From Acidimicrobiia bacterium (GTDB lineage: Bacteria > Actinomycetota > Acidimicrobiia > Spongiisociales > UBA11373): a stretch of DNA of 64,000 bases. The stretch covers positions 28,626 through 92,625 of the forward strand of contig JACRIT010000016.1 in the NCBI GenBank assembly GCA_016215655.1, written 5' to 3'. Positions within the stretch are counted from its first letter, which is position 1. Every line of letters starts with the position of its first letter. Shown piece after piece: positions 1,160-60,263 of this stretch. The position numbers and the translations under genes are program-made. Below the pieces are notes generated by a model. It was not told the origin of the DNA and made no database searches. It saw nothing but the letters and a program-made list of their open reading frames with translations.

Positions 1160-1240
1160 GAGCGCTCCCCGGGAGGTATGGAGGGAGGGTAGTGAGGGGT
1201 CGGCCGCGTGTCGGCCGCCTGGTGGCGGCCTTCTGCTCAG

Positions 1241-7869: not shown

Positions 7870-8859
7870 TCAACCCTGGCGATTGAGGGCGTGGCGGGCT
7901 GCCCAGCCATCGAGGCCGGGCCCGGCGGCGATGTGGACCCACGGGCCGACTTCGCGTTTGACCAGATACCAGGTGCCGGGGTGCAGCACACCCACGATCC
8001 GGGTGTGATCGGTCATGTCGAAGACGTCGACATCGGAAAGCACGTATCCCCAATAGGGTGCGGCCACGGGCTCGGGCGGAGGTTGGGGCGCCGGCTCCGG
8101 GGGGGCGGTCCGGTCGGCGGCCGGTCCCGTCACCACGGGCACGGACGGCGTCGTTTCGGTCGTGGAGGCGATGCGGAGTCGCCGGCGGGTGCGCCGCCTC
8201 TCCCGGGCAGCGCTGCCGAGGAGGCGGGCCACGGCGAACCCCGTGAGCGCGGCGATGGCGATGCAGGCTCCGAGTGCGGGATACGAGGGCTGGAGCACCC
8301 CGAACTGCTGCGCCGTCACCGCGGCGCCGGTTCCGGTGAGGATTCCGGCGAGGGCGGCGCCGACTCCGGTGAACCGGCGGCGTGAGGCGATGGCGCCGAG
8401 TTGCCCGGCGAGGCCGGCGACGGCCACTCCGGCACCGGTGAGCCCGGCAAGGGTGGCAAGGGGGAAGCGGCCGGTGATCCGCATCCATGCCTCGGCAGTG
8501 CACCCATCGGCCTCGCCGCGGATTCGATAGAGCCCCACCGCGTACGGGCTCAGTCCTCCGAGATCGATGGTCGCGGAGAACCCGGTGGCAGGAGTGGCGT
8601 AGGCCGTGGCCGCCGAGTCGATTTCGACGGGGCCGGCGACGATCGACACGCGGGCCGTCGTCGTGCCGCTCTCCATCGTCCCGGAGAACACGAGGGCGTC
8701 GGTCGTGGCGAGTTCGAGCGGGCTGCTCAGGCCATCGATACGATCGACGGGGACACCGTTGAACGTGGGGGAGCAGGATCCTTCCACGGAGGCGGAGGCC
8801 GGGGTGGCGAGCGCCGCCGGCCACGCCAGCACCACGAGCGCGGCGAGCAATCGGCGCAT
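7870..8859 (-). CDS. hypothetical membrane protein with signal peptide, 3 TM helices, Pro-rich linker and C-terminal SH3-like domain
   Basis: Signal peptide MRRLLAALVVLAWPAALATPASA and Gly/Ala-rich TM segments. The C-terminus YWGYVLSDVDVFDMTDHTRIVGVLHPGTWYLVKREVGPWVHI resembles a bacterial SH3 domain. Confidence 0.7.
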   Translation of the reverse strand: MRRLLAALVVLAWPAALATPASASVEGSCSPTFNGVPVDRIDGLSSPLELATTDALVFSGTMESGTTTARVSIVAGPVEIDSAATAYATPATGFSATIDLGGLSPYAVGLYRIRGEADGCTAEAWMRITGRFPLATLAGLTGAGVAVAGLAGQLGAIASRRRFTGVGAALAGILTGTGAAVTAQQFGVLQPSYPALGACIAIAALTGFAVARLLGSAARERRRTRRRLRIASTTETTPSVPVVTGPAADRTAPPEPAPQPPPEPVAAPYWGYVLSDVDVFDMTDHTRIVGVLHPGTWYLVKREVGPWVHIAAGPGLDGWAARHALNRQG

Positions 8860-8882
8860 GGAGACGACGATACCCTCAGGGA

Positions 8883-9575
8883 ATGCGCATCGCCGTCGTC
8901 ACCCTCTTTCCCGAGTTCTTCGCCGGGCCGCTCGGCGTCGGCATCGTCGGCCGGGCGATCGCCGACGGTGTGGTGGCGGTGGAGCCGATCGACCTGCGCG
9001 CCCATGGTCTCGGGGCCTACCGGCAGGTCGATGATGCTCCGTTCGGCGGCGGTGCCGGCATGGTGATGATGATCGAGCCGCTGGCGCGGGCGCTGGAACC
9101 GCTCGCCGCGACGCATCGCGTGCTGCTGTCGCCGGCCGGGGAGCCTTTGCGCCAGCCCACCCTCGACCGCTGGGCGGAGATGCCCCGGCTCACCCTGGTG
9201 TGCGGGCGCTATGAGGGGATCGACGAACGGGTCGCCGAGCACCTCGTCGACGAGGAGGTGTCACTCGGCGACTTCGTGCTCGCCGGCGGGGAGGCAGCGG
9301 CGTTGGCCATCATCGAGGGCGTCGTCCGTCTCCTTCCGGGAGTGGTCGGCAACCCGGAATCGACCCGGCAGGAGAGCTTCCGTGGTGAGGGGCTCCTCGA
9401 GGAACCCCAGTACACCCGACCGGCGGAGTTCGCCGGCTGGGCGGTGCCCGAGGTGCTGCTCTCGGGGGATCACGCTCGCATCGCCGCCTGGCGTCGCGAG
9501 CAGAGGCTGCGCCGCACCAGGGAGCGTCGCCCCGACCTGCTCACCGATTTCCCGGAAGACGGATCCGGCCGCTAA
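8883..9575 (+). CDS. trmD: tRNA (guanine37-N1)-methyltransferase
   Basis: MRIAVVTLFPEFF, DDAPFGGGAGMVM, VCGRYEGIDERV and SLGDFVLAGGE are canonical TrmD motifs. Confidence 0.95.
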   Translation: MRIAVVTLFPEFFAGPLGVGIVGRAIADGVVAVEPIDLRAHGLGAYRQVDDAPFGGGAGMVMMIEPLARALEPLAATHRVLLSPAGEPLRQPTLDRWAEMPRLTLVCGRYEGIDERVAEHLVDEEVSLGDFVLAGGEAAALAIIEGVVRLLPGVVGNPESTRQESFRGEGLLEEPQYTRPAEFAGWAVPEVLLSGDHARIAAWRREQRLRRTRERRPDLLTDFPEDGSGR

Positions 9576-9626: not shown

Positions 9627-9974
9627 ATGAACACGCTCGACCATGTAGAAGGCGCGTACCTGCGCGACGACATCCCGCCCTTCGGGCCGGGGGACACCAT
9701 CAAGGTCAATGTCCGCGTCGTCGAAGGCGGCCGCGAGCGCATCCAGACGTTCGAAGGCAATGTCATCGCCCGTGATGGGGGCGGCCTGCGCGAGACCTTC
9801 ACGGTGCGCAAGGTGTCGTTCGGTGTCGGGGTGGAACGCATCTTCCCGGTGCACGCACCGATCATCGCCTCGATCGAGGTGGTGCGAAAGGGCGACGTGC
9901 GGCGTGCCAAGCTCTACTACTTGCGCGACCGGGTGGGCAGCCGGGCCACCCGCATCAAGGAGAAGCGCGACTAG
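9627..9974 (+). CDS. rplS: 50S ribosomal protein L19
   Basis: [32 protein letters not shown]...RRAKLYYLR. Confidence 0.95.
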
Positions 9975-10027
9975 TCGATGGGCTCGATCCGCCGCGGTGC
10001 AACCCGCGGCAGCGGTATCGTCGCTTC

Positions 10028-15169: not shown

Positions 15170-15862
15170 GTGGAGCGCCAGATGACGCCACGCACACGGC
15201 CGCCGACGGACGGTGCCGGGCTCGAGATCGCCGTCGTCGATTCGCGTCCCCTGTTCGGGGCGGCGATGGCTGCGGTGTTCCAGTCGGCCGGGCTGCGCGT
15301 GCGCGTCGTGCGGCCCGAGGCGGTGCGGCAGCTCGTCGCCCATCCGGGTGTCGCCCTCGTCGCCCGCGCCGTCCCCGATTTCGCCGCCACCGTCACCGAG
15401 TTGACGCGTCACGGCTGCCGGGTGATCGTGTACGGGGTTCTCGATCGGTCCGCCCTCGGCATCGCGGCGCGCGCCGGTGCGGTGGACTTCGTGCCGGAAG
15501 ATGGCGCGGCGCTCGACTTCGAGCGTGCGGTCGAGGCCGCCGTTGGATCGATCGGGCTGCCCGCGTTCTCCGGGGGTGCTCCCGGGGCCTCTCCCCGCCC
15601 CTTCGATCACATCGGGTTCGCCGACCTGACCCGCCGCGAACGGGAGGTGCTCGATGGCCTGGTTGCCGGGCTGCGACCGGCAGACATCGCCCGTCGCGAT
15701 TTCGTCTCGGTGGTCACGGTGCGCAACCAGGTGCAGTCGCTGCTCACCAAGCTCAACGTCCACTCGCAACTCGAGGCCGTGGCGGCAGCCCGGTGGTACG
15801 GATGGGGCGGCCCTCCCACACACTCCGAGGTCGACCCGGCGATTGATGCGTCTGCATCATGA
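15170..15862 (+). CDS. LuxR/GerE-family transcription regulator with degenerate receiver-like N-domain
   Basis: C-terminal HTH LTRREREVLDGLVAGLRPADIARRDFVSVVTVRNQVQSLLTKLNV. In the N-terminal domain the phospho-acceptor position reads ALVARAV (no Asp). Alternative start is ATG 15182. Confidence 0.75.
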   Translation: MERQMTPRTRPPTDGAGLEIAVVDSRPLFGAAMAAVFQSAGLRVRVVRPEAVRQLVAHPGVALVARAVPDFAATVTELTRHGCRVIVYGVLDRSALGIAARAGAVDFVPEDGAALDFERAVEAAVGSIGLPAFSGGAPGASPRPFDHIGFADLTRREREVLDGLVAGLRPADIARRDFVSVVTVRNQVQSLLTKLNVHSQLEAVAAARWYGWGGPPTHSEVDPAIDASAS

Positions 15863-34356: not shown

Positions 34357-34360
34357 GCAT

Positions 34361-34437
34361 TCGGTCCTCTGTCTTCGGTCTTCAGTCCTCAGTCCGAGTC
34401 GCTCCGCGGGTTCTGGCTGAGGACTGAGGGCTGACGA
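34361..34437. repeat. heptad-repeat element E2 (core in inverted orientation)
   Basis: tcggtcc tctgtct tcggtct tcagtcc tcagtcc | gagtcgctccgcgggttctgg | ctgagga ctgaggg ctgacga. tcagtcctcag (34382-92) is the perfect complement of ctgaggactga (34417-27). The reverse complement of the centre is ccagaacccgcggagcgactc. Confidence 0.8.
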
Positions 34438-34472
34438 CTTCTCCCTGATCCCCCGCACTACCCTCCCCGCGC

Positions 34473-36194
34473 ATGCTCTGGTCCCGCGCCTTCATCCCCA
34501 CGCTTCGCGAGGATCCCGCCGATGCCGAGGCGGTGAACCACCGACTGCTCGTGCGCGGCGGCTTCATCCGCCGGCTCATGGCAGGGTCGTGGTCGATGTT
34601 GCCCCTCGGGATGCGCGTGGCCAAGAAGATCCAGGATGTGATCCGTGAGGAGATCGACGCCATCGGCGGCCAGGAGATGCTGTTGCCGGTGGTCCATCCC
34701 GGGGAGATCTGGAAGAAGACCGGCCGTTGGGACGATGTCGAAGGAATCCTCGTCAAGCTCAAGGACCGGCGCGACACGGATCTCCTGCTGGCCATGACCC
34801 ACGAGGAGATCTTCACCACCGTCGCCACCGAGTTGACCTCGTACCGGCAACTCCCGCAGCTCTGGTACCACCTGCAGACGAAGTTCCGTGACGAGCCCCG
34901 ACCCAAGGGGGGACTGCTGCGGGTGCGCGAGTTCACCATGAAGGACTCGTACAGCTTCGACATCGATCCGGCCGGGCTCGATGTCCAGTTCCAGAACCAC
35001 TACCGGGCCTACCACCGGATCTTTGCCCGGCTCGGCATGGATGCCATCGCGGTGCACGCTTCGAGCGGATGGATGGGAGGCAAGGAGTCCGTCGAGTTCA
35101 TGGTGGAGGCCGCCGCCGGCGAGGACGAGATCGCCTTCTGCCCGGCGTGCCGCTATGCGGCCAACACCGAAAAGGCCACTTCGGTGCCCGCGGGCGTCGT
35201 CGATGAGCCGTGGACCGGCCCCCCGGAGCGTTTCCCCACGCCGGGGATCCGTACCATCGCCGAACTCACCGCGGTGGGCGGTTTCGCTTCCGCCGATCGT
35301 CAGATCAAGACACTCGTGTATCTCGTCGGCGGCACCGTGACGCTCCTCCTCCTGCGCGGCGACCACGAGCTCATGGAGCAGAAGGTCGTGGACGGGCTCG
35401 GCACCTGGGAGGTGCGCCCCGCCCGGGATGACGAGATCACCGCGGCGCTGGGTGCCCACGCCGGGAGCCTCGGGGCGGTGGGGGTGAAGGGCCTGCGCAT
35501 CGTGGCCGACCCGGCGCTGCGGGGCAGGGTGAACATGGTCACCGGTGCCAACGACGACGACTGGCACCTGCGCGGCGTCGACGTGGATCGCGACGTCGCA
35601 GTCGACACCTGGCTCGACATCCGTCTCGTGAGGGCGGGAGAGGGATGTCCGACGTGCGGCAAGCCGCTCGAGGTGAAGCGCACCATCGAAGTGGGCCACA
35701 TCTTCAAGCTCGGCACCAAGTTCAGTGAGGCCCTCGGAGCCTCGGTGCTCGACCCCGACGGCGAGCAGCGGGTGATCTGGATGGGCTCGTACGGGATCGG
35801 AGTCGGGCGGAATCTCGCCACGGTGGTCGAGTCGAGCCACGACGCCAAGGGCATCATCTGGCCCATGGCGATCGCCCCCTTCGAGGTCGTGGTGACGGCC
35901 GTGAAGGTGGACGATGCGGCATCGATGGGCGTCGCCGGGGAGATCCACGCCGCCCTCGTCGCCTCCGGGGTCGACACCTTGTTCGACGACCGTGATGAGC
36001 GGCCCGGTGTGAAGTTCGCCGACGCCGAACTCATCGGCATTCCCTACCGGGTGACCGTGGGCCCCAAGGGTCTTGCCGACGGTGTGGTCGAGGTGGTTCG
36101 CCGCCGTGACGGGGCGGTGGAGCGCATCGCCCCGGCGGCGGTGGTGGCGCACCTGGAGCGGCTGGTGAAGGCGGAGCGCGAACTGGGGAAGTAG
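34473..36194 (+). CDS. proS: prolyl-tRNA synthetase
   Basis: Starts MLWSRAFIPTLREDPADAEAVNHRLLVRGGFIRR. Class II motifs are FRDEPRPKGGLLRVREF and GSYGIGVGR. Confidence 0.95.
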   Translation: MLWSRAFIPTLREDPADAEAVNHRLLVRGGFIRRLMAGSWSMLPLGMRVAKKIQDVIREEIDAIGGQEMLLPVVHPGEIWKKTGRWDDVEGILVKLKDRRDTDLLLAMTHEEIFTTVATELTSYRQLPQLWYHLQTKFRDEPRPKGGLLRVREFTMKDSYSFDIDPAGLDVQFQNHYRAYHRIFARLGMDAIAVHASSGWMGGKESVEFMVEAAAGEDEIAFCPACRYAANTEKATSVPAGVVDEPWTGPPERFPTPGIRTIAELTAVGGFASADRQIKTLVYLVGGTVTLLLLRGDHELMEQKVVDGLGTWEVRPARDDEITAALGAHAGSLGAVGVKGLRIVADPALRGRVNMVTGANDDDWHLRGVDVDRDVAVDTWLDIRLVRAGEGCPTCGKPLEVKRTIEVGHIFKLGTKFSEALGASVLDPDGEQRVIWMGSYGIGVGRNLATVVESSHDAKGIIWPMAIAPFEVVVTAVKVDDAASMGVAGEIHAALVASGVDTLFDDRDERPGVKFADAELIGIPYRVTVGPKGLADGVVEVVRRRDGAVERIAPAAVVAHLERLVKAERELGK

Positions 36195-36292
36195 TTTCCC
36201 GCTTCCCGCTACCGGCCGGCACCAGGGTCCGGTACCCGGCGCCCAGTCCCACTCCGCCACCTTCTGACTCGCTTTCACCTCATGCCTGCTTT
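36195..36292. repeat. heptad-phased spacer E3 (weaker member)
   Basis: Reading from the proS stop gives tttcccg cttcccg ctaccgg ccggcac cagggtc cggtacc cggcgcc cagtccc ... C recurs at phase 1 in 11 of 13 consecutive heptads. It shares ccggtacccggc with E7. Confidence 0.55.
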
Positions 36293-36360
36293 TCCCTCCT
36301 GCCCTAGCGATCCTGGACGAGATATACTCGAAACCGGTTCAATTGAGGACGCTGGACGTG

Positions 36361-36384
36361 AAGTGGGCGCCCGCCCACTTTTTT
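36361..36384 (+). terminator. intrinsic terminator/attenuator in the rimP-nusA-infB leader
   Basis: aaGTGGGCgcccGCCCACtttttt: 6-8 bp GC stem, 4-nt loop and a T6 tract (rare in this genome). It lies 16 nt upstream of the rimP ATG, and the SD gaggag follows it. Confidence 0.65.
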
Positions 36385-36399
36385 GTTGAGGAGTGCGTG

Positions 36400-37991: not shown

Positions 37992-40070
37992 ATGCGCGTC
38001 TACGAACTAGCCCGTGAATTGGGCCTCGAGTCCAAGGACGTGCTGGCGCGCGTGATCGATCTCGGCATCGACGTCAAGACCGCCTCGAGCGGCATCAGTG
38101 ACGATGATGCCGCCCTGGTGCGGCTCTCCTACGACGAGGAGAAGGCTCCCCCTCCGGCGGCGGCCGGTCCGGTGGCACCGGTGGAGGTCCCACCCGAGGT
38201 GCTCGCCGCGGTGGTGGAGGAGGAGGAGGCCGCTCCGGTGGCCAAGTCCAAGGGCAAGGACCATCGCCGCGCCCCGGTGGTCGAGGCGCCGCAGCCCAAG
38301 CGGGCGGTCACCGTCCCCGAGGGGATCACCGTCCAGGAGCTGTCCGATCTGATCCGACGACCCGTCGGTCTCATCGTTCGCGAGCTGGTGACCCGGGGAC
38401 GCATGGCGGGTGCCACCCAGCCGGTCCCGACGGATCTCCTCGTCGTGGTCGGCGATGCCCTCGGCTATGACGTCACCATCTCGTCGGCAGCGGCCGCCCC
38501 CGAGCCGGAGGCCCCGGTGATGCGGCGCAAGCGCGACTTCGGCGATGCGAGCGCCACCCTCGTGCGCCGCCCGCCGGTGGTCACGGTCATGGGACACGTC
38601 GATCACGGAAAGACCCAGCTGCTCGACACCATTCGCCGCGCCAATGTGGTCGCCGGCGAGGCGGGCGGGATCACCCAGCACATCGGGGCGTATCAGGCGC
38701 AGGTCGGCGACCACAAGATCACCTTCATCGACACCCCCGGCCACGAGGCGTTCACCTCGCTGCGTGCCCGCGGCGCCGAGATCACCGACATCGTCGTCCT
38801 GGTCGTCGCCGCCAACGACGGAGTGATGCCCCAGACCATCGAGGCCATCAACCATGCCAAGGCGGCCGGCGTGCCGATCGTGGTGGCCATCAACAAGATG
38901 GACCTCGAATCGGCCAATCCCCACAGTGTGCGCGCCCAACTCACCGAGCACGGACTGGTGGTCGAGGAACTCGGAGGTGACGTCGTCAGCGTCGAGGTCT
39001 CCGGACTGACCGGCAAGGGCATCGAGCGTCTGCTCGAGTACCTCGACCTGATCGCCGAGCTCGAGAACTACTCGGCGAATCCCTCCGTTCCGGCCTCGGG
39101 GACGGTCATCGAGGCCCAGCTCGAGACCGGGCGCGGGCCGGTCGCCACCGTCATCGTGCAGCGTGGCACCCTGCGGCGCGGGGATGCCCTCGTCGCCGGG
39201 GGAGTGGCCGGGCGGGTGCGGGCGATGTTCGATGAGCGCGGCGAAGCCGTGGAGTCCGCTGGTCCGAGTGCACCGGTGCTCGTGATGGGGTGGGATGACG
39301 TCCCGCAGGCCGGAGACTTCTTCGAGGTCGCCGAAGACGATCGCGCCGCCCGTGCGCTCGCCGTCGAGCGTCAAACGGCGATGCGCGACCAGGAGCTCGT
39401 GATGCCGACCGCGGCGCAGCGACTCACGGCGCTGCTCGACGATCTGCGCACCGCCGATGACGCCGAACTGCCCATCATCGTCAAGGCCGACGCCCACGGC
39501 TCGCTCGAAGCGATTCGTGAAGCCGTGGCCAAGATCACCCGCGAAGCCGGGAGCATCACCATCGTGCACACCGGGGTCGGGGGGATCAATGAGAACGACG
39601 TGCTCCTCGCCGAGACCACCGGATCGATCGTGTTCGGGTTCAACGTGCGACCCGACGCCAAGGCGCGCAAGGCGGCGGAGAAGGCCGGGATCGAGGTCCG
39701 CACCTATCGGATCATCTACGAGTTGCTCGATGACATCGAAGCCATCCTCGTGGGACGCCTTGCTCCATCCGAGGTGGAGAGCATCCTCGGCTCGGCAGAG
39801 GTGCGGGCCACGTTCCGTGCACCGCGCTACGGGACGATCGCCGGGTCGTACGTCACCGAGGGCGAGATCGTCCGCGGCGCCAGGGCCCGCATCGTGCGCA
39901 ACGGCGTGGTCGTGCACGACGGCACCATCGCCTCGGTGCGCCGGTTCAAGGACGACGTCCGCAGCGTGGCCGCCGGCTTCGAGTGCGGTATCGCCCTCGA
40001 GGGCTTCCGTGACATCAAAGAACGCGACATCATCGAGGCGTACGAAGTCCGCGAAGTGGCGCGGACGTAG
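37992..40070 (+). CDS. infB: translation initiation factor IF-2
   Basis: [12 protein letters not shown]-terminus, G domain [14 protein letters not shown]...DTPGHEAF...NKMD, and a C-terminal beta-barrel. Confidence 0.95.
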
Positions 40071-40175
40071 GCACCAGGCTCCAGGCTCCAGGTACCAGCC
40101 GGAACCCGTGCGACCTCTAGTGTCTGGCATCTGGCAGCTGGCATCTGGCACCGGGCAACGGGTAACGGGTGACAC
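40071..40175. repeat. heptad-repeat element E4 (15 phased heptads filling the infB-DUF503 spacer)
   Basis: gcaccag gctccag gctccag gtaccag ccggaac ccgtgcg acctcta gtgtctg gcatctg gcagctg gcatctg gcaccgg gcaacgg gtaacgg gtgacac. It starts immediately after the infB TAG and ends 1 nt before ATG 40177. Confidence 0.85.
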
Positions 40176-44602: not shown

Positions 44603-44679
44603 GAGCGCCGTTTGGCGGGTGAGGTCCGCGGAACTGCTACAGTTTCCGGGCCGGAGTGCATTCCGCCTCCGGGTTTTCC

Positions 44680-44937: not shown

Positions 44938-44941
44938 CGGA

Positions 44942-44965
44942 AAAGACGATCCTCCGATCGTCTTT
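44942..44965 (+). terminator. rpsO terminator / pnp-leader hairpin
   Basis: AAAGACGATC ctcc GATCGTCTTT is a perfect 10-bp stem 5 nt after the rpsO stop. A second hairpin, cctcggca..tgccgagg, lies at 45026-45043 in the pnp leader. Confidence 0.6.
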
Positions 44966-45098
44966 CGTGCTGTCATGGGGGGCAACACGAAGCGGGAGCC
45001 CTCGCGTCAGTTGCTAGTTGCCACTCCTCGGCATGTGCCGAGGGTTGACTACTGGTAATTGACGGACGGTGGGCTCCCTCGAAGAAGAGAGAGAACAT

Positions 45099-47489: not shown

Positions 47490-47512
47490 GTCCAACCGAT
47501 TCGCGTGGCGCT

Positions 47513-47534
47513 GGGGCCCCCGCAAGGGGGCCTC
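47513..47534 (+). terminator. GC-rich hairpin with GCAA tetraloop downstream of pnp
   Basis: ggGGCCCCC gcaa GGGGGCCtc lies 24 nt after the pnp stop. It has no T-tract (actinobacterial I-shaped type). Confidence 0.5.
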
Positions 47535-47650
47535 GGCGCGTCCGGGGTGGGGCTATCCAGTCCAACGCAGCCTCGTCTTGCCGGGCGAGTGGTTGGGAAG
47601 CCGTCGGCGATGGTCTCCAGTGATGCCACGGCAAGCGATAGGGTGAGTAG

Positions 47651-48268
47651 GTGCGAATCGCAGGTGAGTACAACCTTCTTGCAGTCGGAGACGCGGGTGT
47701 ACGTCTTCGAGAGAGTGGAGCGCTCGTCGAGATCAGACAAGCGATCACGGAGGTGGTCTGGCCAGTCGGTTCAGACATCTTCACGATCTTCCCTGAGTCG
47801 GGGAAGAAGGGAGGAGAGGGCAACGGCGTCGTGCCGATCAGGCAGTCGTTTGTGGAGCGCGCACGCAGTCGGGGTTGGACGGTGGAGCAGCCCTTTCCGT
47901 GGACCACTGAGGCCGGTGAGTCTGACCTCGGTCCTTTGGATGTCTCGAAGCGGTTCGGTCCCGACCTTGTCGGTGTCGAGTGGGAGACCGGGAATGTGAG
48001 TTCGAGCCACCGCACACTCAACAAGCTCTCGCTCGGTCTCGAGGAGGGAGTCTTGGCGGTGGGTGTCCTCATTGTGCCAACCCGTACCTTGGCTCGGTTT
48101 CTCACAGATCGGATCGGAAACCTCGAGGAGCTCAAGCCCTACTTCAGGCACTTTCGCCGAATTCGTTGTGACAGCGGGGTGCTGACCGTTATCGCGGTTG
48201 AACAGGATGCGGAGTCGACTGCGGTGCCGCGGATCAGAAAAGGGACTGATGGTCGGGCGATGCGGTAG
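47651..48268 (+). CDS. type II restriction endonuclease, BamHI-like
   Basis: Collinear with R.BamHI as I remember it. EVVWPVGSDIFTI..GNGVVPIR matches SPIWPATSKTFTI..NGVVPIK. GPLDVSKRF...GVEWETGNVSSSHRTLNKLSLGL matches GPIDVYKEF...GMEFETGNISSAHRSMNKLLLGL. RFLTDRIGNLEELKPYF matches YYLTDRVTNFEELEPYF, and RKGTDG matches PKGSDG. Confidence 0.8.
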   Translation: MRIAGEYNLLAVGDAGVRLRESGALVEIRQAITEVVWPVGSDIFTIFPESGKKGGEGNGVVPIRQSFVERARSRGWTVEQPFPWTTEAGESDLGPLDVSKRFGPDLVGVEWETGNVSSSHRTLNKLSLGLEEGVLAVGVLIVPTRTLARFLTDRIGNLEELKPYFRHFRRIRCDSGVLTVIAVEQDAESTAVPRIRKGTDGRAMR

Positions 48269-49109
48269 GCCTGGCTCGGTTCGATCCTTTCCCGGCGTCT
48301 CCACGTCCTGGGGCCGCGACATGGTGGGTGCGTCCGGAGAGTCGGGCGACAATCGGTTCGGTATCACCGAGTTCGATGCCGATCCAGTGTCGATGCATCC
48401 GTTCGGCAGCGGCGTAGGTCGTACCTGATCCACCGAAGGGATCGAACACCAAGTCGCCCTCAGCCGATGCGATCGTCAGGACGCGCTCCAGCAACCGCTC
48501 GGAGAGTTCGTTGGCGCCTCTCCGTTTTAGGCCCCTGTGGCGAACCGGGGGAATGTCGACCCACACGTCCGTCAGGTTCAGGCCGTCGGGGTTCAGCTTG
48601 TTGCGGTGTCCTCCGTAGTCCTTGATGTCGCCTCCGCAGTGGCGGCAAGTCGGAATGGGTACCCGTGGGCGCTCGAATCGCTTCGGCTTTCCGTTGGAGT
48701 AGTACAGAAGGGAGTAGTGCGAGGGATAGAGCCGACCGGGTATCGGTAAGGACATCTTGATGTCGATCGCAATCCAATGGCGGAAGGTCATGCCGAGTTC
48801 GGTTAGGTAGTGACCGAGCTCAACGTTCCAGCGCGGGAGGTTGTATACGAAGATCGACCCGCCGTCGGCGATGACCCGCACGCATTCGGCAAGCCACTTG
48901 TGGCACCAAGCGAGATAGTCGTCGTCTGCGAGGGCGTCGTTGATGCCTTCGCCGTAGTCCTTCTTGAGGTTGAACGGTGGGTCGGCGAAGACGAGATCCA
49001 CAGAAGCGGTCTCCATGGCCGCGAGCAAGTCGAGGCAATCACCTCGGTAGAGCTTGCCCAAGGGCGTTTCGAGAACGAGCTGCAGGCCTGGGGCGGTCCC
49101 GTCTGACAT
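48234..49109 (-). CDS. beta-class N6/N4 DNA methyltransferase (N6_N4_Mtase family)
   Basis: Motif IV VDLVFADPPF lies N-terminal and motif I VFDPFGGSGTT lies C-terminal, which is the beta permutation. It has a CRHCGGD Zn-ribbon-like insert. It is convergent with the REase, overlapping by 35 nt. Confidence 0.85.
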   Translation of the reverse strand: MSDGTAPGLQLVLETPLGKLYRGDCLDLLAAMETASVDLVFADPPFNLKKDYGEGINDALADDDYLAWCHKWLAECVRVIADGGSIFVYNLPRWNVELGHYLTELGMTFRHWIAIDIKMSLPIPGRLYPSHYSLLYYSNGKPKRFERPRVPIPTCRHCGGDIKDYGGHRNKLNPDGLNLTDVWVDIPPVRHRGLKRRGANELSERLLERVLTIASAEGDLVFDPFGGSGTTYAAAERMHRHWIGIELGDTEPIVARLSGRTHHVAAPGRGDAGKGSNRARPTASPDHQSLF

Positions 49110-49159
49110 AGTTGTAGTTTGGCACCTTGGCGTGACACGCGCTGACCTGGTTGAGTCGG

Positions 49160-50125
49160 TTAGGAGCGTCTCGGCGCGGGGAGGGCAGCGAGCTCGGACT
49201 TCGGTATCCCCAGCACAACCCCCGGCCTCCCCACCTGTCGGAAATCACTGACTACCCCTACGATCTCCTCAACAAGGGCCTGAAGATGCTGCTCCTGTCT
49301 TTCCCATCGCCTCTCTGATGCTTTCTTGTCTGTCGTCAGGTCCTTCTGCATCTCTGTGGCTGCCTGCACCATTCCTCGCATTCGGTCCCCGAAGTCCGAT
49401 CCTCGGACGTACTCATAGACAGCGGTGGCTGTACCAGCCTGCGCACGTGCAGGTCGGTTGGAGTGAAGTTGGATCTGGTTGGCTCGCAGCGCCGCGCTCA
49501 ACGCCGGCGCGAGTTCGAGTGTTGTTCTCCACAATTCATCAATCTGGGCGATAGGTGCCAGGTCAGCTCGGCCAACATCAGAGACTATGACGCCTGCGTT
49601 GTGTCTTCCCGACTTACAGTCCTTGCGCAGTTTTGTCACCCAGGCCGAGCTCCACTTAGCGGCTCGCTTCACCTCCCAGAGAATGGTGCCGACCTTCGCT
49701 CCGCTGGGGTTGAATACCGATTGGGTGACGTCTCCTCCGGCTCTTCCGCGGCCGGTTATCAAGATCTCGTCCTGTGGGAACTTCGATGCGAGCGCTTGAG
49801 CGAGAGCTTCCTCGTGGAGGGCACCGAGCTGTTGCGCGCGTTCTGTCGGGACTCGTCGACTCAGCTTGGTGATCTCACCCTTTAGGGTTCGAACCTGCCG
49901 CCTGAGGTCTTCGGCTTCCTGCTCCTGGTCCCGCCGATCGGCCTCTAGGCGTTTTCGAGCTTCGGTTGCTGCCTGTTCGCGCAAGCCCGGGAGGATCTCC
50001 TTCTTGAGTTGGGGGAGCGTCTCGCGCCGCCAGCCATCGGCAAGCTGCCGGAGGTACGTCTCGTCGAGCTTGATACTGCCTCCGCAGTGTGGACAGGTAA
50101 TCCGGTTGCTGGCAGCCTTGGTCAC
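49160..50125 (-). CDS. DUF2130-family protein (Zn ribbon - coiled coil - PD-(D/E)xK-like domain)
   Basis: N-terminal CPHCGG, then a long charged coiled coil (EQEAEDLRRQVRTLKGEITKL). Next comes GGDVTQSV...GTILWEVKRAAKWSSAWVTKLRKD (D...E-x-K). It lies 50 nt upstream of, and co-oriented with, the MTase. Confidence 0.7.
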   Translation of the reverse strand: MTKAASNRITCPHCGGSIKLDETYLRQLADGWRRETLPQLKKEILPGLREQAATEARKRLEADRRDQEQEAEDLRRQVRTLKGEITKLSRRVPTERAQQLGALHEEALAQALASKFPQDEILITGRGRAGGDVTQSVFNPSGAKVGTILWEVKRAAKWSSAWVTKLRKDCKSGRHNAGVIVSDVGRADLAPIAQIDELWRTTLELAPALSAALRANQIQLHSNRPARAQAGTATAVYEYVRGSDFGDRMRGMVQAATEMQKDLTTDKKASERRWERQEQHLQALVEEIVGVVSDFRQVGRPGVVLGIPKSELAALPAPRRS

Positions 50126-50217
50126 TCCCGGCTCGCGCGTCGTTCCGATTCGTGCTCAGAAGAGCCGTGTGTGTCAGGAGGGCTTCTCTACGGCCCTTGG
50201 CCGGTCCCCTCAAGCGA

Positions 50218-50897: not shown

Positions 50898-52290
50898 GCC
50901 CTGTCAGGTCGTCGATGCATCGGGGACGGTGGTGGCCGTCACCCCCGATGCCTTTGCCATGGGCGCCCGGGTGGGGATGCGCCGCGGCGAGGCCGAGGCC
51001 CTGGCCCCCACCGCGGTCACCCTCGTCTCCGATCCCGGGGGCGAGGCGGTCGCCTTCGAACCGGTGGCGGCGGCCATCGAGTCGGTGGTGCCCGCCATGG
51101 AGATGGTCGCACCCGGGCTGGTCCATCTCCCCGTCGCCGGGGCGATGCGGTACTACCGGTCCGAGGAGGCGGTGATGTCGGCGGTGGTGGCCGCGGTGGA
51201 CCGGGTCGCACCGGGCGGGCGGTTCGGGCTCGCCGACGGTCCCTTTGCCGCCAGGATGGCGGCCGAGCGCGCCGCCACCGGAGCGCTGATCGTCACCGAC
51301 ACCGCCGGGTTTCTCGCCGATCTCGACGTCGCCACCCTCGGGGTCGAAGACCTGGTTGCCACCTTCCGCTGGCTGGGGATCGGCACCCTCGGCGGTCTTG
51401 CCGCGCTGCCGCGACCGGCGGTGGCTTCGCGTTTCGGTCCCGCCGGGCTGGAGGCGCACCGCATCGCCAGCGGCGAGGACCGCATGGTGCATCCCCGTCC
51501 CATCCCGGAGACGGTGCTCGTCGAGGAGGTCTTCGAACCGCCACTCGATGACTTCGAACGAGCCGCCTTTGCCGCCCGGGCCCTCGCCCGGAAGTTGCTG
51601 GAGGCGGTGGCCCCTTCGGGAGCGATGCCACACCGGGTCGAGGTGGAGGTCGAGGCCGCAACGGGGATGATGCGTGTCCGCACCTGGCGCAGCGCCCATC
51701 CCTTTGCCGAGGTCGAACTCGCCGAACGGGTGCGTTGGCAGTTGCGAGCCTGGATCGAGTCGGGCGGGGTGCCCGGGGGTGTGGTCCGGCTGCGCCTGAT
51801 CCCCGCCGATCTCTCCGATCGGGGCCGGCAGCTGCGTCTCGACGAGGACGCCGCCTCCGATCTCGACGCCCACCGCGCCCTGGGACGGGCGCAGGGATTG
51901 GTCGGCCCCGATGCGGTGCTCCAGGCGGTTCCGCAGGGGGGACGGGATCCGGGGGAGCGCGTGCAGTGGCACCGCTGGGGTGAGCCTCCCGAGGGCATCG
52001 CCCGCGATCCGGCAGCACCGTGGCCCGGTCGGCTGCCGTCGCCATCGCCGACGTTGGTGCCACCCCAGCCGCGGCCATTCGAAGTGGAGTGGGATGCCGG
52101 GTTCCCGGTGCGGGTGCGCCTGGGCAGCCGTTGGGAGCCGGTGTTGGGGTGGGCCGGCCCCTGGCGCCGGACCGGACGATGGTGGGAGGGGGAGTCGGCT
52201 GCCGACCGTTACCAGGTGGTCACCTCGGCAGGAGCGTTCCTCTGCGAGGTGCGGGAGGGAAGGTCATGGCTGGTGGGGGTGTACGACTGA
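50830..52290 (+). CDS. imuB: ImuB (catalytically dead Y-family polymerase-like protein)
   Basis: Starts MARTLCVWFPDWPLRR (typical ImuB N-terminus). It has a Y-family fold without the acidic catalytic triad context, and C-terminal WRRTGRWWEG...YQVVT...FLC. Confidence 0.8.
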   Translation: MARTLCVWFPDWPLRRPDSPPDRPCQVVDASGTVVAVTPDAFAMGARVGMRRGEAEALAPTAVTLVSDPGGEAVAFEPVAAAIESVVPAMEMVAPGLVHLPVAGAMRYYRSEEAVMSAVVAAVDRVAPGGRFGLADGPFAARMAAERAATGALIVTDTAGFLADLDVATLGVEDLVATFRWLGIGTLGGLAALPRPAVASRFGPAGLEAHRIASGEDRMVHPRPIPETVLVEEVFEPPLDDFERAAFAARALARKLLEAVAPSGAMPHRVEVEVEAATGMMRVRTWRSAHPFAEVELAERVRWQLRAWIESGGVPGGVVRLRLIPADLSDRGRQLRLDEDAASDLDAHRALGRAQGLVGPDAVLQAVPQGGRDPGERVQWHRWGEPPEGIARDPAAPWPGRLPSPSPTLVPPQPRPFEVEWDAGFPVRVRLGSRWEPVLGWAGPWRRTGRWWEGESAADRYQVVTSAGAFLCEVREGRSWLVGVYD

Positions 52291-52409
52291 AGAAGTCTCC
52301 AGTCTCCAGTCTCCAGTCTGGAAGTCATCAGTCATCAGTCATCAGCCAGAACGCGTCGGGCTCTGGCATCTGGCATCTGGTACCTGGCACCGGGGCGTAC
52401 CCTTTCCTC
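52291..52409. repeat. heptad-repeat element E5 (17 phased heptads, exactly stop-to-start)
   Basis: agaagtc tccagtc x3 tggaagt catcagt x2 catcagc cagaacg cgtcggg ctctggc atctggc atctggt acctggc accgggg cgtaccc tttcctc, then ATG 52410. The core gccagaacgcgtcgggc lies at 52345-52361. Confidence 0.9.
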
Positions 52410-53009
52410 ATGGACCGTCACGCCTGGAACGAGCGGTATCGGGAGCGGGGATTCCACGGGCACACCGGTGCCAACCGGTTCTTCGTGGAGATCGCCTCCG
52501 CGCTGGCACCGGGAGCCGCCTATGACCTGGCGGGCGGTGAGGGCCACAACGCCGTCTGGCTCGCCGAACACGGCTGGCGGGTGACCGTGGTCGATTGGTC
52601 GGAGGTCGCTCTGGAGACGGGGCGACTGCTTGCCGCCGAGCGTGTCGTCGAGGTCGACTTCGAGGAGGCCGACCTGCTCGAGTGGCGACCCGTGGAGCTG
52701 CGCGACCTGGTGGCGATGGTGTACCTGCAGATTCCCCCCCGGGAGCGGCAGGCCGCCTGGTGCACTGCCGTCGACGCTCTCGCACCCGGTGGCACGCTGG
52801 CGATCATCGGCCATGACTCCTCCAACCTCACCGAGGGATGCGGCGGCCCGCAGAGTCCCGACGTCCTCTACACCGCCGACGAGGTGGTCGAAGTGATCGG
52901 CGACCGGGTCGAGATCCTCCGCGCCGGACTCGTGTCCCGCCCCGTGGTCCTCGACGACGGCACCACGGCGATCGCCATGGACAATGTGGTGGTGGGGAGG
53001 CTCAGGTAG
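52410..53009 (+). CDS. class I SAM-dependent methyltransferase
   Basis: Motif I AYDLAGGEGHNAVWLAEHGWRVTVVDWS, followed by PGGTLAIIGH. The substrate is unknown. Confidence 0.8.
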   Translation: MDRHAWNERYRERGFHGHTGANRFFVEIASALAPGAAYDLAGGEGHNAVWLAEHGWRVTVVDWSEVALETGRLLAAERVVEVDFEEADLLEWRPVELRDLVAMVYLQIPPRERQAAWCTAVDALAPGGTLAIIGHDSSNLTEGCGGPQSPDVLYTADEVVEVIGDRVEILRAGLVSRPVVLDDGTTAIAMDNVVVGRLR

Positions 53010-53025
53010 ACCTGAGGGCCAGGCG

Positions 53026-53088
53026 GAGTCCTCAGTCCTCAGTCCTCAGCCAGAACGCGTCGGGCTGATGACTGATGACTGAAGACTG
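53026..53088. repeat. heptad-repeat element E6 (long imperfect hairpin around the conserved core)
   Basis: gagtcct cagtcct cagtcct cagccag aacgcgt cgggctg atgactg atgactg aagactg. Arms 53027-53051 and 53063-53087 pair at 22/25 positions with an 11-nt loop. It lies between the convergent MTase and plsC genes. Confidence 0.9.
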
Positions 53089-53093
53089 GTCCC

Positions 53094-54649: not shown

Positions 54650-55833
54650 GGCGGCTGACCCTCGCCCAGGTGCGTCGGGCCCACATCGCCGCCCAGGGCC
54701 TGGCGACGCCGCGGCCCTCCTCCCCTCCCGACATCCGCCACCTGCGCAGGGCCATGCAGACGATGGGTGTGCTCCAGATCGATTCGGTGAACGTCGTCGA
54801 GCGGGCCCACCAGCTGACCCTGTTCTCCCGTCTTGGCCCCTACGACTCCGATCTGCTGTGGCGCGCGCTGCGCACGCGCCACATCTTCGAGTACTGGACC
54901 CACATGGCATCGTTCGTGTCGATCGCCGACTATCCGCTGTGGAAGCACCGCATGGTTCACCATCGAGAGCACCCCTGGCAGCGGATCCACGAACTCCATG
55001 AACGGGCGCCTGGCTACGTCGACTCGATCCTGCGCCAGGTGGCGGAGCGCGGTCCGCTCACCCCGTCCCAGCTCGAGGAGCCGGGGGAGCGGCGCGGGCC
55101 GTGGTGGGGCTGGGCCGACGGCAAGTACGTGCTCGAGTGGATGTTCGAGAGCGGTCAGGTGGCGGTGTCGGACCGGCGCAACTTCGAACGCCACTACGAC
55201 CTCGCCGAGCGCGTGATACCGGCGGTGCACCGGGAGGCGCCGATGGTCCCCGAGGAGGAGGCGCATCGGATCCTGCTGGTGCGGGCCGCCGAACGGATGG
55301 CGGTGGCCAGCGCCAAGGGCCTCGCCGACTACTACCGGCTCCCCATCGTCTCAGCCCGCGCCGCCGTCGATGCCCTGGTCCGCGAGGGTGCCCTCGTTCC
55401 GGTGGAAGTGTCCGACTGGAGCGAGCCATTGTTCATGCATCCGCAGGCGAGGTTTCCCCGTGCGGTGGAGGCCCGGGCGCTGCTCAACCCGTTCGATCCG
55501 ATCGTGTGGTTTCGTGAGCACACCGAGCGCCTGTACGACTTCCACTACCGCATCGAGATCTACACCCCCGCCCCCAAGCGGGTCCATGGCTACTACGTGT
55601 TCCCCTTCCTCCTCGGTGACGAACTCGTGGCGCGGGTCGATCTCAAGGCGGATCGCAAGGCGGGGGTGTTGCGCGTGCCCGGGGCGTTCCTCGAGACCGG
55701 ACAGGACCCGAGACGAGTCGCTCGGGAACTGGCCGGGGAGTTGGCCGAGATGGCCCGCTGGCTCGGGATGGATGAGATCGCCGTCGGCAAGAAGGGCGAC
55801 CTGGCCGGAGCGCTGGCAAAGGCGGTGGGGTAG
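54646..55833 (+). CDS. winged-helix DNA glycosylase AlkZ/YcaQ family (DUF1006)
   Basis: GTGA overlap with the upstream gene. Motifs QGLATPRP, GVLQIDSVNVVERAHQLTLFSR, FEYWTHMASF, HGYYVFPFL and VARVDLKADRKAGVL. Confidence 0.75.
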   Translation: MRRLTLAQVRRAHIAAQGLATPRPSSPPDIRHLRRAMQTMGVLQIDSVNVVERAHQLTLFSRLGPYDSDLLWRALRTRHIFEYWTHMASFVSIADYPLWKHRMVHHREHPWQRIHELHERAPGYVDSILRQVAERGPLTPSQLEEPGERRGPWWGWADGKYVLEWMFESGQVAVSDRRNFERHYDLAERVIPAVHREAPMVPEEEAHRILLVRAAERMAVASAKGLADYYRLPIVSARAAVDALVREGALVPVEVSDWSEPLFMHPQARFPRAVEARALLNPFDPIVWFREHTERLYDFHYRIEIYTPAPKRVHGYYVFPFLLGDELVARVDLKADRKAGVLRVPGAFLETGQDPRRVARELAGELAEMARWLGMDEIAVGKKGDLAGALAKAVG

Positions 55834-55938
55834 AAGCCCGACGCCCGATGCCCGATGCCTGGCGCCCGCTTCCGGAACCCGGTACCCGGCACCCCATTGT
55901 CCGCGGTTCGGGCAACCGGCATCTGGCCTCTGGCGACC
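55834..55938. repeat. heptad-repeat element E7
   Basis: gaagccc gacgccc gatgccc gatgcct ggcgccc gcttccg gaacccg gtacccg gcacccc attgtcc gcggttc gggcaac cggcatc tggcctc tggcgac. G is at phase 1 in 11 of the first 12 units. It contains the core-like ccggaacccg. Confidence 0.8.
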
Positions 55939-55976
55939 GCCCTACCCTTACTCCAACCCTCACGGAAGGACCCTCG

Positions 55977-59763: not shown

Positions 59764-60248
59764 CCATCCCCGAGACCTCCCTGCGGGTGATCGCCGCCGG
59801 CGGGCGCCTCGGGGTGAGCGTGGACATGCGCCATTTCCCCGAGGGGACGAAGACCTCGCAGGACGCCGCCAATGCCATCGGCTGTCCCCTCTCGGCGATC
59901 GCCAAGTCGATCGTCGTCACCCTCGACGAGCGCGAGCAGGTGGTCGTCTTCGCCTCCGGTGACACCCGCATCGATCTCGAGCGCCTGGCCGTCGCCGCCG
60001 GCGCCGTCTCAGCCCGGCGCGCCACCCTCGAGGAGGCGCGCTCCGCCACGGGGTTCGCCGCCGGAGGCACCCCGCCCTTTGGCTACCCGGGTGCGGTTCG
60101 GGTCTTTGCCGACCGTGCGCTGCAGCGTCACGACCTCGTGTGGTCGGCCGGGGGCACACCGACCACGGTGTTCCCCATCCGTCTCGACGACCTGGTGCGG
60201 GCGGCCGAGGCCGAGTGGGTGGATGTTGCGGCTCGAGCCGACCGCTGA
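59760..60248 (+). CDS. YbaK/ProX-type aminoacyl-tRNA editing domain protein
   Basis: GTGA overlap. Motifs KSIVV, GFAAGGTPPFGY and VWSAGGTPTTVF. Confidence 0.75.
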   Translation: MTIPETSLRVIAAGGRLGVSVDMRHFPEGTKTSQDAANAIGCPLSAIAKSIVVTLDEREQVVVFASGDTRIDLERLAVAAGAVSARRATLEEARSATGFAAGGTPPFGYPGAVRVFADRALQRHDLVWSAGGTPTTVFPIRLDDLVRAAEAEWVDVAARADR

Positions 60249-60263
60249 CAGCCGACAGCCCGG

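Follow-up and report, generated by a model that had tools for sequence, protein, structure and literature searches.

Intergenic heptanucleotide repeats have been known in cyanobacteria since 1990, and the short tandemly repeated repetitive (STRR) sequences of these organisms are reportedly of this kind. Here, we describe repeats of the same period in the spacer at positions 52291-52409 of a 64,000-nt stretch of DNA from a member of the Acidimicrobiia—the window, whose numbering is used throughout—together with related elements elsewhere in the window and in syntenic loci fetched from relatives at graded distances, which carry L-numbers (e.g., L121 and L210). These elements form a family that is a variant of the heptamer-repeat class known from Xanthomonas and cyanobacteria and not a new kind of element. 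The family is restricted to one clade but genome-wide there, so that it reflects neither high-GC DNA in general nor some oddity of the window alone. Its members gain and lose whole 7-nt units, its arrays are homogenised internally, and entire arms are replaced far faster than the flanking genes.

The closest described system is that of the GGGAATC and GGGGA(C/T)T heptameric repeats of Xanthomonas and Nostoc (Rehm et al. 2015, PMC4692102). These repeats are intergenic, prefer four units, and form 70-75 inverted pairs per genome; they lie on average 28 nt from the upstream open reading frame (ORF), mostly between co-directional genes, and occupy the same loci in related species with much variation in length and sequence, whereby unit positions 1-4 and 6 are conserved (PMC4692102). 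The family described here shares the number of about four units per array, the pairing of inverted arrays, the placement nearest the upstream stop codon, and the intergenic bias. The same intergenic positions are used in related genomes with varying length and sequence. As in GGGANTN of Xanthomonas and Nostoc, the unit CKGRNRN of this family is conserved at positions 1-4 and 6 and varies at positions 5 and 7, and right arms that read exactly GGG(T/C)ATC or GGGTAAC are found in some relatives. It differs by its host phylum, the Actinomycetota (class Acidimicrobiia), by the coexistence of many unit types instead of one dominant type, by a core CCRGAACSCG that recurs between the arms, and by the concatenation of several different arrays per spacer. 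In addition, most units—such as CTGANGA, CTGGCAT, and CTGGWGC—lack a G-tract. The focal units AGTCTCC, AGTCATC, and TCTGGCA contain no G3 tract and are thus not G-quadruplex (G4) repeats in the narrow sense, and only some arrays of relatives carry such tracts ((GGGTAAC)5 in L122 and (GGGTATC)4 in L128). Hence, G4 formation can account neither for the focal element nor for the preference for four units in this clade.

Heptanucleotides are reportedly the most abundant class of long simple sequence repeats (SSRs) in bacteria, with a rationale in polymerase slippage, and three Actinobacteria are found among the ten genomes richest in them, as the work of Mrazek 2007 is summarized in PMC4679880 and PMC4692102. 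The present arrays bear the features of this class, namely head-to-tail units, an excess of period 7, an intergenic bias, and locus polymorphism between close relatives. As for STRRs and long heptanucleotide SSRs in general, the tandem heptamers are dispersed between genes, several unit types occur per genome, and period 7 is over-represented; unit sequences are unrelated to those of STRRs, however, which have been described mainly as simple arrays and not as inverted arms around a core. The TAACTGA direct repeats of marine Beggiatoaceae, Microcystis, and some Bacteroidetes, for which a translational role was proposed (PMC4679880), likewise form intergenic arrays (of 2-6 copies) that are mixed with other heptamers, patchy across lineages, close to start codons, and missing from some spacers of close relatives. 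They differ by having one dominant unit, by their AT-rich genomes, and by 169 direct sets versus one indirect set (PMC4679880). A further case of heptamer repeats is (GATAGRA)n of Chloroflexus.

Another well-known type of intergenic repeat comprises the repetitive extragenic palindromic (REP) sequences and bacterial interspersed mosaic elements (BIMEs) of Enterobacteria and Pseudomonas, which are conserved imperfect palindromes of ~35 nt associated with REP-associated tyrosine transposases (RAYTs). The elements of the present family resemble them in being abundant between genes, in lying past stop codons, in often forming hairpins, and in varying between strains. Unlike REP/BIME, they consist of tandem heptamers, and only a core of 10-19 nt is common to the copies, with differing arms and no long conserved palindrome; a RAYT (TnpA_REP) was found neither among ten scanned window proteins nor among the Pfam-labelled genes of the fetched loci. 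An earlier note on this DNA, made from the sequence alone, had likened the style of the elements to both STRRs and REP/BIME. The former analogy is apt, whereas the latter applies to position only. The note also knew of no equivalent in high-GC actinobacteria. This was too strong a statement: the repeat class as such has been described, Actinobacteria included, but a literature search found no paper that links heptamer repeats to Acidimicrobiia.

Period-7 arrays are present at eight intergenic sites of the window, with 14 arrays altogether. Perfect three-copy arrays occur four times at period 7 and never in 30 dinucleotide-preserving shuffles, and among the periods from 5 to 15 this enrichment is confined to period 7. 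At an identity of at least 85%, the 14 arrays of period 7 compare with 3, 1, 0, 0, 0, 0, and 1 at periods 5, 6, 8, 9, 10, 11, and 12. Lag-7 identity reaches 0.52-0.66 in five and 0.38-0.42 in two of the ~40 spacers of at least 25 nt, at a baseline of ~0.27. The periodicity that the earlier note had proposed to check by autocorrelation thus stands above both the shuffles and the other periods, and its dispersed family of intergenic 7-nt-periodic elements is borne out. That these arrays are chance low-complexity sequence or an assembly artefact has a negligible probability: the former is excluded by the shuffle controls, and the arrays recur in many independent assemblies (ENA, JGI, NCBI, and Logan). 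All listed arrays lie within or at the edge of intergenic spacers, in the window as in relatives, and six of the eight window elements start no more than ~5 nt from a stop codon. Of the six further sites named by the note, those at 1241, 34361, 40071, 53026, and 55834 are clear and the one at 36195-36292 is weak, and an eighth, small array at 60237-60261 comes in addition.

The core CCRGAACSCG has five matches in the window, where 2.15 would be expected, and all five fall inside heptad elements and hence into the 9.65% of the window that is intergenic. This agrees with the previous observation that most copies share a core in either orientation: identical cores of 10-19 nt are found at non-homologous loci and in both orientations. 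A contig search with the 17-mer core GCCAGAACGCGTCGGGC returned 120 scattered single matches in unrelated taxa, none of them flanked by heptads. Such matches reflect chance only, and the core alone is therefore not diagnostic. Nor is the core motif more frequent overall in close relatives, with 7.7 versus 5.0 occurrences per 100 kb in distant ones. Rfam covariance models, whose use had likewise been suggested, gave no match at gathering thresholds across the whole window and none at E<=1 for 34000-56200, so that no Rfam family matches the elements.

Between the TGA at 52288-52290 and the ATG at 52410, the focal spacer measures exactly 119 nt, as had been stated before. Its upstream neighbour is an imuB-like gene, whose orthologs match IMS weakly, and its downstream neighbour a gene for a class I SAM methyltransferase that starts with this ATG. 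Tandem Repeats Finder (TRF) detects three period-7 arrays in the spacer, on either side of CAGCCAGAACGCGTCGGGC; all features are given for the plus strand. The first left array, AGTCTCC in 3.7 copies with 100% matches (52294-52319; CTGGAGA on the other strand), begins 3 nt past the upstream stop, and orthologous AGTC[Y/A]CC arrays are present in L132, L128, and L138. The second left array, AGTCATC in 3.3 copies with 100% matches (52323-52345; CTGATGA on the other strand), is missing from the orthologs L132 and L128 and is hence a recent addition. The core or junction CAGCCAGAACGCGTCGGGC (52343-52361) is a 19-mer identical to 53047-53065, 700 bp away beyond the methyltransferase gene, and is kept at the orthologous site in L132, L133, L128, and L138. 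It is followed by the right array, TCTGGCA in four copies (CTGGCAT in another phase) with 85% matches (52362-52389), whose type of unit recurs at 40123-40150, 55911-55934, and L210 8261-8287. A -10-like TACCCT at 52398-52403, located 6 nt 5' of the methyltransferase ATG, lies outside the repeat and is kept in all orthologs; the ATG at 52410 is probably leaderless. The description of the spacer as 17 phased heptads throughout was hence overstated. Its final two "heptads," CGTACCC TTTCCTC, are this -10-like element plus the 6 nt before the ATG, and the second left array is offset by 8 nt and not 7 from the last unit of the first (AGTC anchors at 52315 and 52323). As the AGTC anchor steps by 8 nt, the single-phase reading is in part an artefact of splitting any sequence into sevens. 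The focal copy folds no better than shuffled sequences (z about 0) and, lacking significant structure, is most likely a tolerated and largely neutral copy.

The arms are not arbitrary in sequence. Identical canonical units occur at non-homologous loci in three pairs versus 0.18 expected (P about 8e-4), and units with at most one mismatch in 13 pairs versus 3.4 expected (P about 6e-5). For instance, both 40123 and 52362 consist of TCTGGCA units, of which TCTGGCC at 55911 is a variant with one mismatch, and units of the CTGAKGA type are shared by 34361, 52323, and 53026. We derived a unit consensus from 34 hand-curated, C.G-anchored arrays, oriented outward from the core. Read in this way, most arms fit CKGRNRN, the arrays have on average 4.0 units, and within-array variation amounts to 30% at position 5 versus 4-7% at positions 1-4. 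Left arms follow the reverse complement NYNYCMG, also in elements whose arms do not pair with each other. The units thus do change from copy to copy, as had been noted earlier, but within a limited vocabulary that fits this consensus. A typical element consists of a core, commonly CAGC(C/A)(A/G)GAAC(G/C)CG, with one to three arrays per side of ~3-6 heptamers each.

Homologs of the methyltransferase, IF2, and Ffh of the window come from metagenome-assembled genomes (MAGs) and metagenomes of uncultured Acidimicrobiia. Against the 14 period-7 arrays in the 64 kb of the window, close relatives—defined by a methyltransferase that is at least 73% identical—have 34 in 79 kb, L210 has 7 in 22 kb, and L214 has 19 in 21 kb. 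Distant Acidimicrobiia have 13 in 537 kb, unrelated high-GC loci 10 in 898 kb, and the syntenic outgroup L212, whose IF2 is 75% identical, has none in 22 kb. This corresponds to 2-9 arrays per 10 kb in the window and its close relatives and to ~0.1-0.2 in distant Acidimicrobiia or unrelated high-GC DNA; no such contrast between close and distant sets appears at periods 5 and 6. In L212, the ispG-proS and infB-DUF503 spacers measure merely 26 and 47 nt, as compared with 116 and 106 nt of heptads in the window. L214 is an unrelated 21-kb region of a relative, and its 19 arrays bear out the suggestion of a genome-wide family.

Within the clade, array density is very uneven along the chromosome. 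L214 (GCA_964440905.1) contains spacers of 199-243 nt that consist nearly entirely of heptads (9758-10000 and 15175-15373), with, e.g., ~17 GCCCGAN units upstream of ffh, whereas the methyltransferase locus of the same assembly (L128) has only two arrays in 19 kb. Upstream of trmD, L214 has a spacer of 199 nt that is made of heptads, whereas the heptad-free counterparts in the window and L213 measure 23-32 nt.

The comparison of orthologous spacers, another of the checks that had been proposed, shows that the architecture is kept while units, copy numbers (in 7-nt indels), and whole arms change, and that this turnover of arms and units is much faster than that of the flanking genes. Among relatives with 73-91% protein identity, four types of arms are found in the convergent methyltransferase/plsC spacer. 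The window and L126 have (TCNTCAG)n-core-(CTGANGA)n, L121 and L122 have (GCCGACA)n...(ACGGGTA)n, L128, L131, and L132 have (GAGAGTT)n...(AACTCTC)n, and L133 has (GAGCTNT)n; in L140, a 68% relative, a plain short hairpin is seen there by eye. On a shorter timescale, L122 and L124 differ at 3/600 and 1/738 nt of the flanking coding sequences (CDSs), and their upstream heptad spacer by 13 substitutions and two 7-nt indels; L136 and L122 are distinguished by a single GGGTAAC unit. At infB-DUF503, the right arm is (TCTGGCA)4 in the window and (ACTGGTA)5 in L210, with a 7-nt gap, whereas left arm and core are kept, and the same substitutions are spread across the whole array, i.e., the arrays evolve in concert. 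The ispG-proS element is wholly different between the window and L210 despite an IF2 that is 91% identical. The spacers on both sides of the methyltransferase gene share one module in the window, with the identical 19-nt core, and a different common module in L122. Arrays stop just 5' of the conserved TA[CG]CCT -10.

The other elements of the window show how varied the theme can be. The sister of the focal element, (AGTCCTC)3 with the same 19-nt core and (CTGATGA)3 at 53024-53089, lies between the convergent methyltransferase and acyltransferase genes and forms a clean hairpin with one mismatch per 7 bp (minimum free energy -36.0 kcal/mol on the plus and -39.2 kcal/mol on the minus strand; z -5.8 and -6.7); its L126 ortholog folds likewise (z -5.2 and -6.5). 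The ispG-proS element on the plus strand, (TCNGTCY)5 with the core in reverse orientation and (CTGAGGR)3 at 34360-34439, is a hairpin of -42.1 kcal/mol (z -4.45) on the plus and -25.9 on the minus strand, followed by a -10-like TACCCT at 34459. The infB-DUF503 element at 40068-40173 (plus strand) fills its spacer with (GCNCCAG)4, the core CCGGAACCCG, (TCTGGCA)4, and (ACGGGYA)3, and forms no significant hairpin in the window (z +0.35). Past the stop codon of an AlkZ-like gene, (GCCCGAY)4 and (CCCGGNA)3 with the core CCGGAACCCG are joined to a CGGGCAA..CTGGCNN array (55833-55934, plus strand; z -1.9), again with a TACCCT downstream at 55943. The upp/ffh divergent spacer contains (CGCAATT)2.3, a 33-nt centre, and (GCGAATT)3.3 at 1242-1313, which fold into a strong hairpin (-44.9 kcal/mol, z -7.1) that is kept with an expanded centre in L213. 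This element is without the CCRGAACSCG core, and its centre, GCCAGACGCGTCGAG on the minus strand, resembles by eye the core minus one base. A weak or degenerate member with two to three TTCCCGC units and a CCGGTACCCGG-type tail (36196-36216, plus strand; lag-7 identity 0.38) lies directly past the proS stop, where L210 has (ATCTGGC)3. Finally, the small GCCGACA-type array at 60237-60261 (plus strand) sits in a convergent spacer and overlaps the 3' end of a gene that ends at 60248.

Strong hairpins, with z-scores from -3.4 to -9.6, make up about half of the elements, whereas a non-hairpin class has values of about 0. The former class comprises 1241, 34361, and 53026 in the window and, in relatives, the downstream spacers of L126, L128, and L132, L121:17759, the ispG-proS and infB-DUF503 elements of L210, and the infB-DUF503 element of L211. 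The latter includes the focal element at 52291, that at 40071, and several orthologs, which show only pairing of the CCAG/CUGG type at 4 of 7 positions. All four lineages, among them L210 (z -4.2) and the heptad-free outgroup L212 (z -2.3), have a hairpin between infB and DUF503. Hence, at least some elements elaborate older hairpins. No canonical promoter was called inside the elements by a promoter scan.

We consider it probable, with moderate confidence, that the elements are slippage-driven composites of heptanucleotide SSRs that fill unconstrained intergenic DNA, often elaborate older hairpins, and in some cases serve as structural punctuation. Replication slippage in a 7-nt register, a preference of the kind reported for long SSRs in many bacteria, would drive the growth of the arrays, and template switching or gene conversion might copy one arm onto the other and shift units between nearby or dispersed copies, which would account for both the inverted symmetry and the common vocabulary. 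The elements occupy the DNA from a stop codon to the -35/-10 of the next, often leaderless, gene, between convergent stops, or between divergent promoters; they end abruptly at functional sequence, and several sites look like elaborated older plain hairpins. Most copies would be tolerated filler. Those with very stable hairpins, of RNA or DNA, and those of the GGG type are probably structural punctuation at the ends of transcription units—as a barrier to read-through or a protection of 3' ends—which we hold with lower confidence, and, judged by their sequence, the GGG-type arms could form G-quadruplexes. Several points weigh against this picture. Slippage gives no reason for a 7-nt register, and plain slippage predicts neither CKGRNRN with its one hypervariable position nor a conserved asymmetric core, two features that would rather suggest recognition of a specific sequence or the spread of a master copy. 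CGCAATT, GGCTCAT, and CCTCCGG arrays fall outside CKGRNRN, whose underlying set is hand-curated and C.G-anchored. As for structure, hairpin copies often carry a mismatch at every seventh pair. Comparison of 53026 in the window with L126 reveals no compensatory change, as both carry a mismatch at the variable seventh position; selection for pairing is hence not demonstrated. A terminator scan found no U-tract in any element, which sets them apart from intrinsic terminators, and the difference between sense and antisense folding energies is inconsistent (seven favour sense, three antisense, and four neither).

A purely structural role would turn the elements into selected terminators (factor-independent or Rho-assisting), insulators, or REP-like protectors of mRNA 3' ends, with the pairing of the heptad stems kept by selection and non-pairing copies in decay. 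The strong hairpins in the window and its relatives speak for this, as do the six of eight window elements that start near a stop and end before the next -10, the hairpin at infB-DUF503 that is kept in four lineages where the sequence is not, and the stronger sense folding of 34361 (-42.1 vs -25.9 kcal/mol), which implies G:U pairs on the transcribed strand. Nevertheless, folding is no stronger than in shuffled sequences for the focal copy, for 40071, and for several orthologs, the elements lack a U-tract, seventh-position mismatches are uncompensated, and the bias toward the sense strand is not consistent. Copies between divergent promoters (1241; L214 9758-10000 and 15175-15373) need no terminator, and relatives as well as the outgroup cope with element-free spacers of 23-47 nt. 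We regard such a role as rather unlikely. Less likely still is a non-autonomous mobile family, akin to miniature inverted-repeat transposable elements (MITEs) or REPs, whose core and proximal units would be copied by some enzyme and whose heptad arrays would be secondary growth. It would fit the 10-19 nt core at non-homologous loci in both orientations, the unit vocabulary common to different loci, the presence or absence of an element within the clade (the spacer upstream of trmD in L214 vs the window and L213), and the wholly different ispG-proS elements of the window and L210. Yet the comparison by eye of filled and empty sites (L214 15175-15373 vs window 8851-8882 and L213; window vs L212), whose flanks are short and divergent, shows neither discrete ends nor terminal inverted repeats nor duplications of a target site, and no transposase or RAYT-like gene is found among the ten scanned window proteins or the called genes of the relatives' loci. 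Moreover, the core is not enriched overall in close relatives, and gene conversion explains the sharing equally well.

The regularity of the unit also allows for a reading in which a protein that binds single-stranded nucleic acids—e.g., one with a cold-shock domain—would find a phased site in each heptad and melt or gate the hairpins, thereby tuning read-through or translation. CKGRNRN/NYNYCMG with its free positions 5 and 7 would then be a candidate recognition code, and a protein that coats the pyrimidine-rich 5' arm would decide whether this arm pairs with its partner, which might create titratable gates on read-through between transcription units, including the rimP-nusA-infB-rbfA-pnp cluster. 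Neutral SSRs do not usually have a unit consensus in which some positions are fixed and others free, and CspB is stated to bind heptamer repeats with one protein per heptamer (PMC4679880). Several elements lie within the proS-rimP-nusA-infB-rbfA-pnp cluster. This cluster is antiterminated by cold-shock proteins (CSPs) in E. coli, and the CspB ligand is reportedly GUCUUUA, which the 5' arms GUCUUCA, GUCCUCA, GUCAUCA, and GUCUCCA resemble. However, many units (GCCGACA, ACGGGTA, and CGCAATT) are unlike CSP ligands, and close outgroups with the same operon lack the elements, whose turnover at fixed sites is extreme. We regard it as quite improbable; if it were true, and if the heptads of Xanthomonas and cyanobacteria were patterned for the same reason, it would explain the excess of 7-nt repeats in bacteria.

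This clade is an independent high-GC, Gram-positive case of heptamer repeats, with many unit types, strain-level polymorphism in metagenomes, and element-free syntenic outgroups. It offers a natural system for studying the preference of bacterial genomes for 7-nt repeats but does not constitute a new class of elements. Arrays of preferably about four units, in which positions 1-4 and 6 are fixed and positions 5 and 7 are free, are built here from units that are not of the G4 type, which argues against G4 as a general explanation, and the reverse-complement consensus of the arms around the core—even where these do not pair—points to a symmetric generating process. On the practical side, the arrays are strain markers for uncultured Acidimicrobiia in the manner of variable number tandem repeats (VNTRs), likely contig break points, and a source of annotation errors when ORFs are extended through them.

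Other known motifs were considered for the core and arms as well. Integron attC sites, sigma-54 promoters, and LexA boxes were rejected by inspection, as their consensus sequences do not fit, and accumulated target-site duplications as a source of the arms would yield direct and not inverted arms.

The hexamer TA[CG]CCT has six plus-strand matches in the window, all of them intergenic, including 1346-1351, 8871-8876, 34459-34464, 52398-52403, and 55943-55948. Four of the six lie 6-8 nt before an ATG that has no Shine-Dalgarno sequence (ffh at 1360, the gene at 8883, proS at 34473, and the methyltransferase gene at 52410), and the hexamers are kept in orthologs. TA[CG]CCT looks like the -10 element of leaderless genes. 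Its placement implies that ffh starts at 1360, giving 446 aa as in homologs, and not at 1393.

Two further kinds of candidate leader are found in the window. At 36330-36390, a -10-like box GATATACT is followed by the hairpin GAAGTGGGCGCCCGCCCACTT (36360-36381) and a T-run 5' of rimP-nusA. This feature is kept as far as the heptad-free outgroup L212 and looks like a leader attenuator of the rimP-nusA-infB operon; the hairpin with its T-run implies that canonical hairpin-plus-U terminators are in use in this genome. The pre-S15 (44603-44679) and S15-pnp (44938-45098) spacers contain no heptads and are near-invariant across the clade, the latter being identical to L210 at 156/158 positions, where the infB CDS is ~86% identical. 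Neither spacer has an Rfam match, and both are probably autoregulatory leaders of rpsO and pnp outside current models.

Heptad spacers of relatives are frequent sites of gene insertion. A 1.8-kb block separates left and right arms in L121 (8150-10000), a VapBC-like toxin-antitoxin (TA) pair lies in a heptad spacer of L138 (1175-2507), the methyltransferase-plsC spacer of L134/L135 holds a TA-like pair (L134), and a block with an extracytoplasmic function (ECF) sigma factor is found between direct CGATTGG arrays in L129 (7889-10000). The arrays may be hot spots of recombination or integration. They can also be absorbed into coding sequence, as at 60237-60261 of the window and in L210, where proS is called with 594 aa versus 573-574 aa elsewhere and gains its extra C-terminus from (AGGTATC)n and (CAGCYGA)n arrays (8197-8263).

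A 2.7-kb island at 47.5-50.2 kb of the window (47500-50200) stands out by a GC content of 0.60-0.64 versus 0.69. It was considered as a source of a transposase or RAYT and rejected, as its genes, both on the minus strand, are instead those of an N6/N4 DNA methylase at 48234-49109 and of a DUF2130 protein at 49160-50125. The island is absent between pnp and the MT3502_N gene in L210 and L211 and is probably a recently acquired, restriction-modification-like island.

A separate repeat of longer period is found next to the element at 1241. In L213 (40-150), three tandem units of ~45 nt, each with the hairpin GGTCGGCCGCCTGGCGGCGGCC, lie 5' of the 1241-type element, and one to two copies of this unit are present in the window (1199-1235).

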